From a virus (lineage: Duplodnaviria > Heunggongvirae > Uroviricota > Caudoviricetes), in IMG/VR virus record IMGVR_UViG_2703718779_000017: 14,944 bases of DNA; one strand, given 5' to 3'. The notes beneath the pieces are model-generated. The model searched no databases. It saw nothing but the letters and a program-made list of their open reading frames with translations, and was not told the DNA's origin. Position numbers and translations under genes: made by a program. This document shows, piece after piece, positions 12,253 through 13,063 of this stretch (its first letter is position 1; the number at the start of each line of letters is the position of its first letter).

Positions 12253-12393
12253 ACAATCCAGAAAAATTTCTGGCAAAAAGACTTGGTATACTAGCTATGA
12301 GCAACTTCCTAATACCTTGATTTTTCTTGGTGTTAAATTTGATTAACTTTTCAGCAATTTCACGTATTGCACTGATTTTTATTTGTTTTTCTT

Positions 12394-12453
12394 CGGTCTT
12401 GAAAACCGGCGACCCGAAAGGGTTCCAGAGTTCGAATCTCTGCGCTTCCGCCA
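12394..12453 (+). other. att core: 3'-terminal ~60 nt of tRNA-Ser(UGA) (serT-like), anticodon stem to CCA; not an intact tRNA gene
   Basis: cggtcttgaaaaccggcgacccgaaagggttccagagttcgaatctctgcgcttccgcca matches E. coli tRNA-Ser(UGA) from the anticodon stem onward. The 28 nt upstream do not match the tRNA 5' half. Confidence 0.8.
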
Positions 12454-12462
12454 AATAATCAA

Positions 12463-12495
12463 GGGGTTACCAAATGGTAGCCCCTTTGCTTTTCT
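12463..12495 (+). terminator. Intrinsic terminator-like hairpin just after the tRNA 3' segment
   Basis: 9-bp stem GGGGTTACC / GGTAGCCCC (one G-U pair), AAAT loop, then TTTGCTTTTCT. Confidence 0.55.
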
Positions 12496-12500
12496 GGCTC

Positions 12501-12531
12501 TTGGTATAAACTTGGTATACCAATTGGTATA
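12501..12531 (+). repeat. Three tandem arm-type integrase-binding-site candidates (TTGGTATA x3 at 11-12 bp spacing)
   Basis: ttggtataaacttggtataccaattggtata. A fourth copy (acTTGGTATAct, 12283-12290) and degenerate copies lie between int and the core. Confidence 0.5.
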
Positions 12532-13063
12532 TTTTTATTCGGATGATCTTGGTTCTTCCGGCCACTCAATATCAGGTGCAGTTGATGTATCAACACGGTT
12601 CAGCAACACCCGATACTTCTTCCAGGCTTCCAGCAACGAGTTTTCTTCCTCCGTTGCGATCTCCAGATCTACTGAAGAAGGCAACAGAAATAGATAATTA
12701 GTGCTTTATATTCAAAAGGTTAATAGCAAATTTGGCATGCTTTTTACTGTCTAGTAAACAGCATGCCTCTATCCATAAAATCAAACAGTTGCAATCTAAT
12801 TTTGGAGAACGTTTTTTCTTCTCCCTTTTAGCAAATCGCTATAAAAAACAACAAATGGTATAAAAATGAGCAATCCTAATCCATGCATGACGGACTGGAG
12901 AAAGTATTCACAAAAGTTAAAATCAACAGTCTGTTGATTTTGAGATATAACTCTCTTTTCTAATATTGACACCTTGGCTTTGCTGGTTGTTAAAATTAGC
13001 TTGTTGATTAGTAGTATGGATAGAACTTACTCTGTTATTTACTTCTAAAAATGGAATTTATCA

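Follow-up and report, generated by a model that had tools for sequence, protein, structure and literature searches.

The window (the whole stretch of DNA that was analysed, 14,944 nucleotides) contains a phage attachment (att) site between an integrase gene and a gene for a secreted effector. The integrase gene (positions 11233–12252, plus strand) encodes a 339-residue tyrosine integrase (WP_001299351.1; Pfam Phage_integrase) of a prophage designated Y in what follows. Its start is overlapped by a small gene (11013–11255, plus strand) with a match to the Pfam family DUF4224 (E = 2.2e-8), which is annotated as a CDS in Escherichia coli EH2252 and in the O103:H2 strain 12009. Judging from its position, the product of the small gene is likely to be the excisionase or directionality factor of prophage Y. 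The integrase gene is followed by an int-proximal arm (12253–12393), a core (12394–12458) and an int-distal arm (12454–12546), all given on the plus strand. Next comes the 3′ fragment of a tail-fibre assembly gene (tfa; 12535–12675, minus strand), a pseudogene annotated as an incomplete tail fiber assembly protein. Positions 12560–12672 of this fragment are 96–97% identical to the 3′ end of lambda tfa, and the fragment is a recombination scar at the edge of an effector locus. The effector gene itself, espK (13064–14425, plus strand), encodes a type III secretion effector annotated as WP_000938124.1 in 23 genomes. It is cargo of a second prophage, X, whose tail-fibre genes are on one side of it and whose att arm is on the other.

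Residues 1–319 of the integrase, the N-terminal arm-binding domain among them, align with lambda Int structures (phmmer, E = 5.6e-20). The alignment starts at residue 1 of both proteins (MGRPRK...LPPRVRSNGYSY versus MGRRRS...LPPNLYIRNNGYY), which indicates at the level of sequence that the integrase has an N-terminal arm-binding domain. Equivalents of the catalytic residues R212, K235, H308, H333 and Y342 of lambda Int are present, and the fold agrees as well. The position of R311, the second catalytic arginine, is occupied by a lysine (FHDIK), which is conserved in all relatives examined. The lysine could alter the chemistry of the reaction; its family-wide conservation and the hundreds of insertions at serT argue that the enzyme works.

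Anatomy of the att site

The core is a 65-bp segment of identity with the bacterial site, made up of the 60-nt 3′ part of the tRNA gene serT and the pentanucleotide AATAA. In the alignment with the annotated serT of K-12, which encodes tRNA-Ser(UGA), all 60 of 60 positions at 12394–12453 are identical, and the identity with the host site extends for 5 nt past the end of the tRNA (AATAA), to 12458. ARAGORN finds no tRNA in the window, the 5′ half of serT being missing. An earlier note on this DNA, which had taken the 60-bp segment for the 3′ part of tRNA-Ser(UGA) without its 5′ half, was right on both counts. The same 60 nt are common to attL, attR, attB (of K-12) and phage Evi, and the core is identical in all four att sites, which leaves no polymorphism that would mark the crossover. 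[quoted passage not shown] Because the identity begins at the anticodon stem, strand exchange would be placed in the anticodon loop, CTTGAAA (12399–12405, plus strand), and the anticodon stem would provide the inverted core-type sites.

The core is surrounded by exact copies of the 8-mer TTGGTATA. On the plus strand, the int-proximal arm has its sole copy at 12283–12290, and the int-distal arm carries three copies in tandem (12501–12531), at 12501–12508, 12512–12519 and 12524–12531. Repeated sites distinct from the core are found on both of its sides (1 + 3 exact copies), with spacings of 218, 11 and 12 nt across the att site. The middle distal copy (12512) is part of TTGGTATACCAA, and a minus-strand copy at 12516–12523 overlaps a plus-strand copy because TTGGTATACCAA is a palindrome. 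One more copy, single and unrelated, is located at position 6529. The window has six copies in all, where 0.31 would be expected, and a count of six was not reached in any of 200 shuffles.

A scan of 12253–12500 for copies of TTGGTATA with one mismatch found none. Two candidate degenerate copies, TTGGTGTT at 12327 and another near 12312 on the minus strand, were discarded as not conserved in diverged arms (11 sequence variants); the latter coincides instead with a match to the consensus for integration host factor (IHF). Of the repeats listed in the earlier note, the exact copy at 12283–12290 and the triplet at 12501–12531 are retained, and the degenerate copies between int and the core are not supported. 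The 8-mer TTTCTGGC, which precedes the repeats in both arms, was considered as a second motif and rejected, since it is conserved neither in the diverged viral contig L060 nor in a Salmonella junction.

The heptamer TGGTATA at the 12283 site is unchanged in 11 of 11 arm variants although its flanks diverge. The triplet recurs with equal spacing in phage Evi, in the second internal attP junction of strain 12009, in the attL sites of EH2252 and E2865 and in L060, which keeps the 1 + 3 layout (spacing 217/11/12) in arms with many substitutions. The Salmonella contig has a whole serT followed by a hairpin and then by TTGGTACA/TTGGTATA/TTGGTATA. In one lineage, both arms have CTGGTATA and the N-terminal domain of Int has substitutions (e.g. 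P28K and G36K), a single case that gives only a hint of covariation between the arm motif and the domain. More distant relatives of the integrase (L095 and L096, with 76–78% identity, and Kluyvera L018) have no serT fragment, tRNA or TTGGTATA array downstream, so they carry no comparative information on the arms.

It is reasonable to regard TTGGTATA as a candidate arm-type site of the integrase. The motif can be read in this way because the protein aligns with lambda Int over the arm-binding domain, and the reading draws on the layout on both sides of the core, the conservation amid changing flanks and the covariation.

Other parts of the arms are conserved to different degrees. The int-proximal arm has conserved islands across 11 sequence variants. 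Just 3′ of the int stop codon, it contains an inverted repeat, CCAGAAA-AA-TTTCTGG (12258–12273). In phage Evi, this repeat is a palindrome of 16 bp without a mismatch; elsewhere it is conserved only in part. The IHF consensus WATCAANNNNTTR has three matches in the whole 14.9-kb window, all of them in the att region. Two flank the core and are candidate IHF sites by their match to the consensus: AATCAAGGTATTA (12310–12322, minus strand) and AATCAAGGGGTTA (12457–12469, plus strand), the second directly after the core. A block next to the first of these, TGATTTTTCT, is invariant among the arm variants; one of the IHF matches is imperfect in diverged arms. A comparison of the att region with Rfam gave nothing relevant, the only match being a sub-threshold one to IS009 on the tfa fragment. 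Most of the IMG/VR loci end at the int stop codon and are uninformative on the arms.

The int-distal arm, the prophage X part of the site, has its limits set by conservation. It is identical, or matches at 92 of 93 positions, among elements that differ in the cargo past 12546: the tfa fragment and espK here and in E2865, and an EspV fragment and TccP2 in Evi, at the second internal attP junction of 12009 and at attL of EH2252. Since the cargo differs past 12546, the arm ends there; in L060, its conservation stops at about 12535. A terminator scan identified a phage-borne hairpin and T-run in this arm (12461–12496, plus strand), consisting of an 11-pair stem (12461–12486) followed by TGCTTTTCTG. 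K-12 has a diverged homologue of the hairpin at the equivalent position downstream of serT.

Genomic setting and alternative readings

The entire 14.9-kb window is 100% identical to positions 1309650–1324593 (minus strand) of the chromosome of E. coli EH2252, and to no other complete genome. Its central 1.2 kb is 100% identical in 23 complete E. coli chromosomes. The chromosome of 12009 was considered as the source of the window and set aside: it is 100% identical at 11900–13100 and 95–96% identical in the remaining window. In EH2252, the order is hyaA, an intact serT (attL), an EspV fragment with a TccP2-like gene, prophage Y, the Y integrase gene, the att site, the tfa fragment, espK, prophage X, the X integrase gene, attR and yccA. 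The outer ends of the array, attL by hyaA and attR by yccA, are both at serT, and their flanks are identical to K-12. Prophage Y, on the int side, has lambda-like head genes, and prophage X, on the espK side, has HK97-like head genes. The two have in common only the integration module and the Int protein, the end of prophage X encoding a protein identical to WP_001299351.1.

As in a tandem joint, both flanks of the att site continue into separate prophages, and its arms match the phage arms of the outer sites. The int-proximal arm is identical at 165 of 165 positions to the arm of attR beside yccA, and the right arm (12454–12546) matches the arm of attL at 92 of 93. The K-12 attB shares only 12394–12458 with the site. 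The att site is thus very probably a complete POP′-type joint formed by two different lambdoid prophages that are stacked head to tail in serT. On the strength of the 100% match, we take the window to be chromosomal and to derive from an array of the EH2252 type.

The alignment of the four sites agrees with the logic of the earlier note, in which arms on both sides made the site a complete attP and not a simple prophage–host junction. Its suggestion of a junction between tandem prophage copies is borne out as far as the joint of stacked prophages is concerned, except that X and Y are different phages and not copies. The note had also placed the effector-like genes on the phage itself, in a position corresponding to the b region of lambda. 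This is correct for espK, with the qualification that the phage is prophage X and not the int-bearing prophage Y. The site is the border between prophages, and int and espK, 800 bp apart, lie on different ones. In E2865, an intact serT is followed by the int-distal arm, the tfa fragment and espK.

Three other readings would change the nature of the site. The window could come from a virion or from a circular or excised genome, as the earlier note had also proposed, and the site would then be the attP of one phage with espK in its own b region. The anatomy is that of the phage Evi record (int, attP and an effector remnant in the middle of a linear 40-kb genome), and from the window alone a free phage and a tandem array look the same. 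The only full-length match at 100% is, however, a chromosome, the best phage record covers 71% of 11200–13100 at 92.5%, and in EH2252 the flanks run into two prophages that differ in their head modules and have attL and attR as their outer limits. A non-integrated genome is therefore very unlikely. That the site is a plain attR, with bacterial DNA to the right of the core and the TTGGTATA triplet there by chance or as a host feature, is close to inconceivable, even though the host has its diverged hairpin homologue at 12461–12490 and BLAST alignments of true attR sites reach 12493. The earlier note had named collinearity of the right-hand side with host DNA, triplet included, as the finding that would speak against its own reading of an intact attP; K-12 differs past 12458 and has no TTGGTATA triplet downstream of serT. 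Neither K-12 nor the attR of EH2252 contains TTGGTATA in this region, both are dissimilar past ~12493, and 12454–12546 has 35 of 93 matches; the arm accompanies phage cargo in Evi, E2865, 12009 and L060. Extremely improbable, too, is a captured attB, i.e. a prophage nested in another prophage as in Nakamura et al. 2021 (PMC8112680). Prophages of Shiga-toxin-producing E. coli (STEC) do carry host-derived attB sequences in effector loci (PMC8112680), and PPompW prophages have a decayed serT-like sequence beside espO. Nesting, however, yields two half-sites with one-sided arms. Here both arms are at a single site, X and Y are uninterrupted, and the array ends at the chromosomal serT in ordinary junctions, attL on one side and attR on the other. 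The PPompW sequence, moreover, resembles the relic of an attP in having remnants of both arms.

A different question is what binds the repeats. Even with the joint being real, TTGGTATA might be bound by an Xis-like protein, Fis or a repressor, or be a structural or promoter element. The distal palindrome TTGGTATACCAA could suit a dimeric protein, and compared with lambda the layout is reversed, the three sites being on the arm away from int. The palindromic half is, however, lost in the Salmonella version, and the 8-mer flanks the core on either side, at distances like those in lambda and with 11–12 nt from copy to copy, a helical-repeat spacing. It is kept where its flanks diverge, it changes in both arms together in the lineage with changes in the N-terminal domain of Int, and Int itself appears to have an arm-binding domain of the lambda type. 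These observations make another binder unlikely and favour the integrase.

Proposed function and distribution of the joint

The observed anatomy, genomic context and conservation of the att site suggest how the joint would work if, as we infer, Int and IHF bind to it, the crossover falls in the tRNA part and the site is active today. Prophage Y contributes the arm between int and the core with its one TTGGTATA, and prophage X contributes the arm beyond the core with the terminator hairpin and three TTGGTATA. The integrase would be heterobivalent, its N-terminal domain binding to the TTGGTATA arm sites and its catalytic domain exchanging strands in the anticodon-loop part of the 65-bp core, and IHF would introduce bends at its two consensus matches on either side of the core. 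Upon integration, the phage copy of the tRNA 3′ part would complete serT together with the phage's own terminator. In the array, the joint would act as attR of Y (through the int-proximal arm) and as attL of X (through the distal arm), so that either prophage could excise alone, and further phages of like type could insert.

A complete joint of this kind, counted when a query spanning both arms was covered to at least 80%, is found in 79 of the 5426 complete E. coli genomes. The matches listed include strains of O26:H11, O103:H2 and O121. The half consisting of int, arm and core (attR or attP) is present in 748 complete E. coli genomes; a scan of GTDB genomes gave two loci only. Stacked prophages at serT were seen directly in EH2252, O121 RM8352 and O26 11368, and RM8352 has an equal joint in an array that begins at yccA. 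The phage Evi record has int, the core and the triple repeat midway along its 40-kb linear genome, at 92.5–93% identity to the window up to 12546. The site illustrates how a single tRNA gene comes to collect effector-carrying phages in Shiga-toxin-producing lineages.

The arrangement differs among strains. In O26 11368, X and Y follow each other at serT in the reverse of the EH2252 order, and a rearrangement splits the array. In strain 12009, this joint and a further one are part of a three-prophage array of 153 kb, which is bounded by serU att repeats, and serT is empty. The first and third of these prophages share 22.8 kb at 99.72% identity, a duplication that flanks a two-joint block with the order Y-int/attP/espK-X/int/attP/EspV′. 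With the joint at serU and serT empty, not every copy of the joint arose by stepwise insertion into serT. The pattern is as expected if a serU prophage already in place had taken up an excised Y–X circle through homologous recombination. In the PPompW prophages, the decayed serT-like sequence beside espO, with its remnants of both arms, looks like a relic of attP and not like an attB.

The opposite orders of X and Y in EH2252 and O26 11368 and the serU array of 12009 are what suggests that an internal complete attP may be a live substrate, by which effector prophages are reshuffled and moved as units, and not a passive scar. We put this forward tentatively and consider it rather doubtful. If it is true, complete attP joints mark a route for the relocation of effector-phage stacks to non-cognate loci. 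The joint also bears on a common proof of excision and circularization, PCR across attP: in the 79 genomes, the product arises from the chromosome without any excision.

Relation to known attachment systems

The effector loci of lambdoid prophages are said to have been described as exchangeable by Tobe et al. in 2006. The espK locus here, with the tfa fragment at its flank, is typical of such loci, and no difference of note was seen.

The literature contains two precedents for host-derived att sequences and stacked prophages in STEC. Nakamura et al. 2021 (PMC8112680) found attB-type targets within prophages, which are used by a different integrase and result in nested prophages. Similarities with the present case are that lambdoid prophages of STEC have host-derived att sequences by the effector loci at their tail-fibre end, and that effector phages accumulate at one locus. 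Unlike those targets, the site described here comes with an int of its own and both phage arms, and the prophages that meet at it stand end to end. Tandem prophages at serT (serT_1–3) have been reported in STEC (PMC10132054), and a survey of O121 strains is available (PMC8767318). In the parts of these two reports that bear on the present site, the locus (serT), the kind of strains and the stacking of two or three lambdoid prophages are the same, and the same parts list integration sites without an internal joint, arms or a repeat motif.

The site is of modest importance. Features of this kind are known, and serT has already been reported to harbour tandem prophages; a description of the arm anatomy was not found. 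Our literature search found no binding or recombination data for this integrase, and no described arm site or serT attP for these phages. A specific arm-site motif, TTGGTATA in the 1 + 3 layout, and candidate IHF sites are now available for testing. The motif belongs to a widespread serT-targeting integrase, found in ~14% of complete E. coli genomes, for which no published site anatomy was found.

The system closest in organization is that of phage lambda, which has a 15-bp core in an intergenic site and the arm sites P′1–3 next to int, and which regenerates a POP′ joint in tandem dilysogens. The two integrases are homologous over their full length, and both attP sites have a core in common with the bacterial site, arm repeats on two sides about one helical turn apart and IHF-type sites (candidates here) beside the core. 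Both span about 250–290 bp, and int reads toward the site. Unlike in lambda, the target here is the 3′ part of a tRNA gene with 65 bp of identity, the arm motif is the unrelated TTGGTATA, the triple repeat stands on the arm far from int, the tRNA receives a terminator from the phage, and Int has a lysine at the position of the second catalytic arginine. As in a tandem lambda dilysogen, a complete attP is regenerated between the prophages, but X and Y are different phages. A complete attP at such a joint is the expected and documented outcome of tandem lysogeny, and in this respect the case is an ordinary one.

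Serine tRNA prophage arrays in other strains

The serT locus of E. coli O26:H11 strain 11368 (NC_013361.1, 1170000-1271000) and strain E2865 (NZ_AP018808.1, 1512000-1531000; together these regions hold compared loci L003, L008, L010 and L011) carries the espK prophage and the TccP2/EspV' prophage in reverse order relative to EH2252. The array is also split: its ends adjoin yccA and ymdF/rut, and hya-serT-espK lies about 300 kb away. The reversed order together with the split therefore implies an inversion between the prophages.

A different arrangement is found in O103:H2 strain 12009 (NC_013353.1, 2282600-2436000; loci L002, L004, L005, L006 and L104), in which three prophages form a 153-kb array. 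Two complete serT-type attP joints lie inside this array, which is flanked on both sides by serU att repeats (91% over 79 nt). The serT locus itself is empty, with yccA, serT and hyaA contiguous. Prophages 1 and 3 have 22.8 kb in common at 99.72% identity. Judging from this organization, the array looks like the product of a two-prophage circle that entered a serU prophage via homologous recombination.

Variants and remnants of the attachment module

The att site in the window has one copy of TTGGTATA in the int-proximal arm and three in the int-distal arm (the 1 + 3 layout). In contrast, the variant element found at L078 (IMGVR_UViG_2778261065_000020, 2549-2777) and L082 carries a single CCTGGTATATT in each arm, with a spacing of 218. 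The integrase of the L078 variant has N-terminal substitutions (N7D, P28K and G36K) that are absent from the other integrases compared. The arm site and the arm-binding domain may co-vary in the L078-type element, but this is a single lineage.

A decayed serT-type attP relic devoid of int is present in LC567822.1 (PPompW_132418; locus L102, 3948-4150), where it adjoins espO in PPompW prophages. Both arms have left remnants, GTTGGTACA on one side and TTGGTATA with TTGGTACA on the other, and the hairpin and a degenerate core are also retained (84% identity over 140 nt). The relic looks like the leftover of an old attachment module in the effector locus.

A 3.2-kb contig named 'Salmonella phage S.Kent 1-2-1' (OR851037.1, locus L101) is flagged UNVERIFIED_ORG. 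By its sequence, this contig is a prophage-host junction rather than a phage genome, because it displays a bacterial-type upstream flank and a whole serT gene followed by a phage arm.

Elements surrounding the joint

Six bases past the int stop codon, the window contains the inverted repeat CCAGAAA-AA-TTTCTGG (12258-12273), which is a perfect 16-bp palindrome in Evi, a phage record with the same att module, and is only partially conserved in diverged arms. This repeat may be bound by the DUF4224 protein, the product of a small gene that overlaps the start of int, or by another factor.

Further along prophage Y, on the int side of the joint, a full-length DicF antisense RNA gene is located upstream of dicB (7797-7848, plus strand; Rfam RF00039, 77 bits versus a gathering score of 48). 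On the espK side, a sub-threshold match to Rfam IS009 (12581-12750, minus strand; 83.8 bits versus a gathering score of 117) overlaps a tail-fibre-assembly gene fragment and the spacer preceding espK; it probably stems from shared prophage sequence and not from a functional RNA. Several records of Stx1a-converting phages end in ~220 bp with 95.9% identity to the spacer 5' of espK (12675-12892); other STEC phage genomes therefore carry this spacer sequence at their ends.

The catalytic motif of the integrase

The int codons at 12086-12097 encode the F-H-D-I-K region of the protein (residues ~288-292). The FHDIKAK motif is kept in all integrase relatives examined, including a Kluyvera protein at 58% identity. 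Compared to lambda Int, in which the corresponding segment is H308-E-L-R311, the H-D-I-K of the window integrase has a lysine in the position of the second catalytic arginine.
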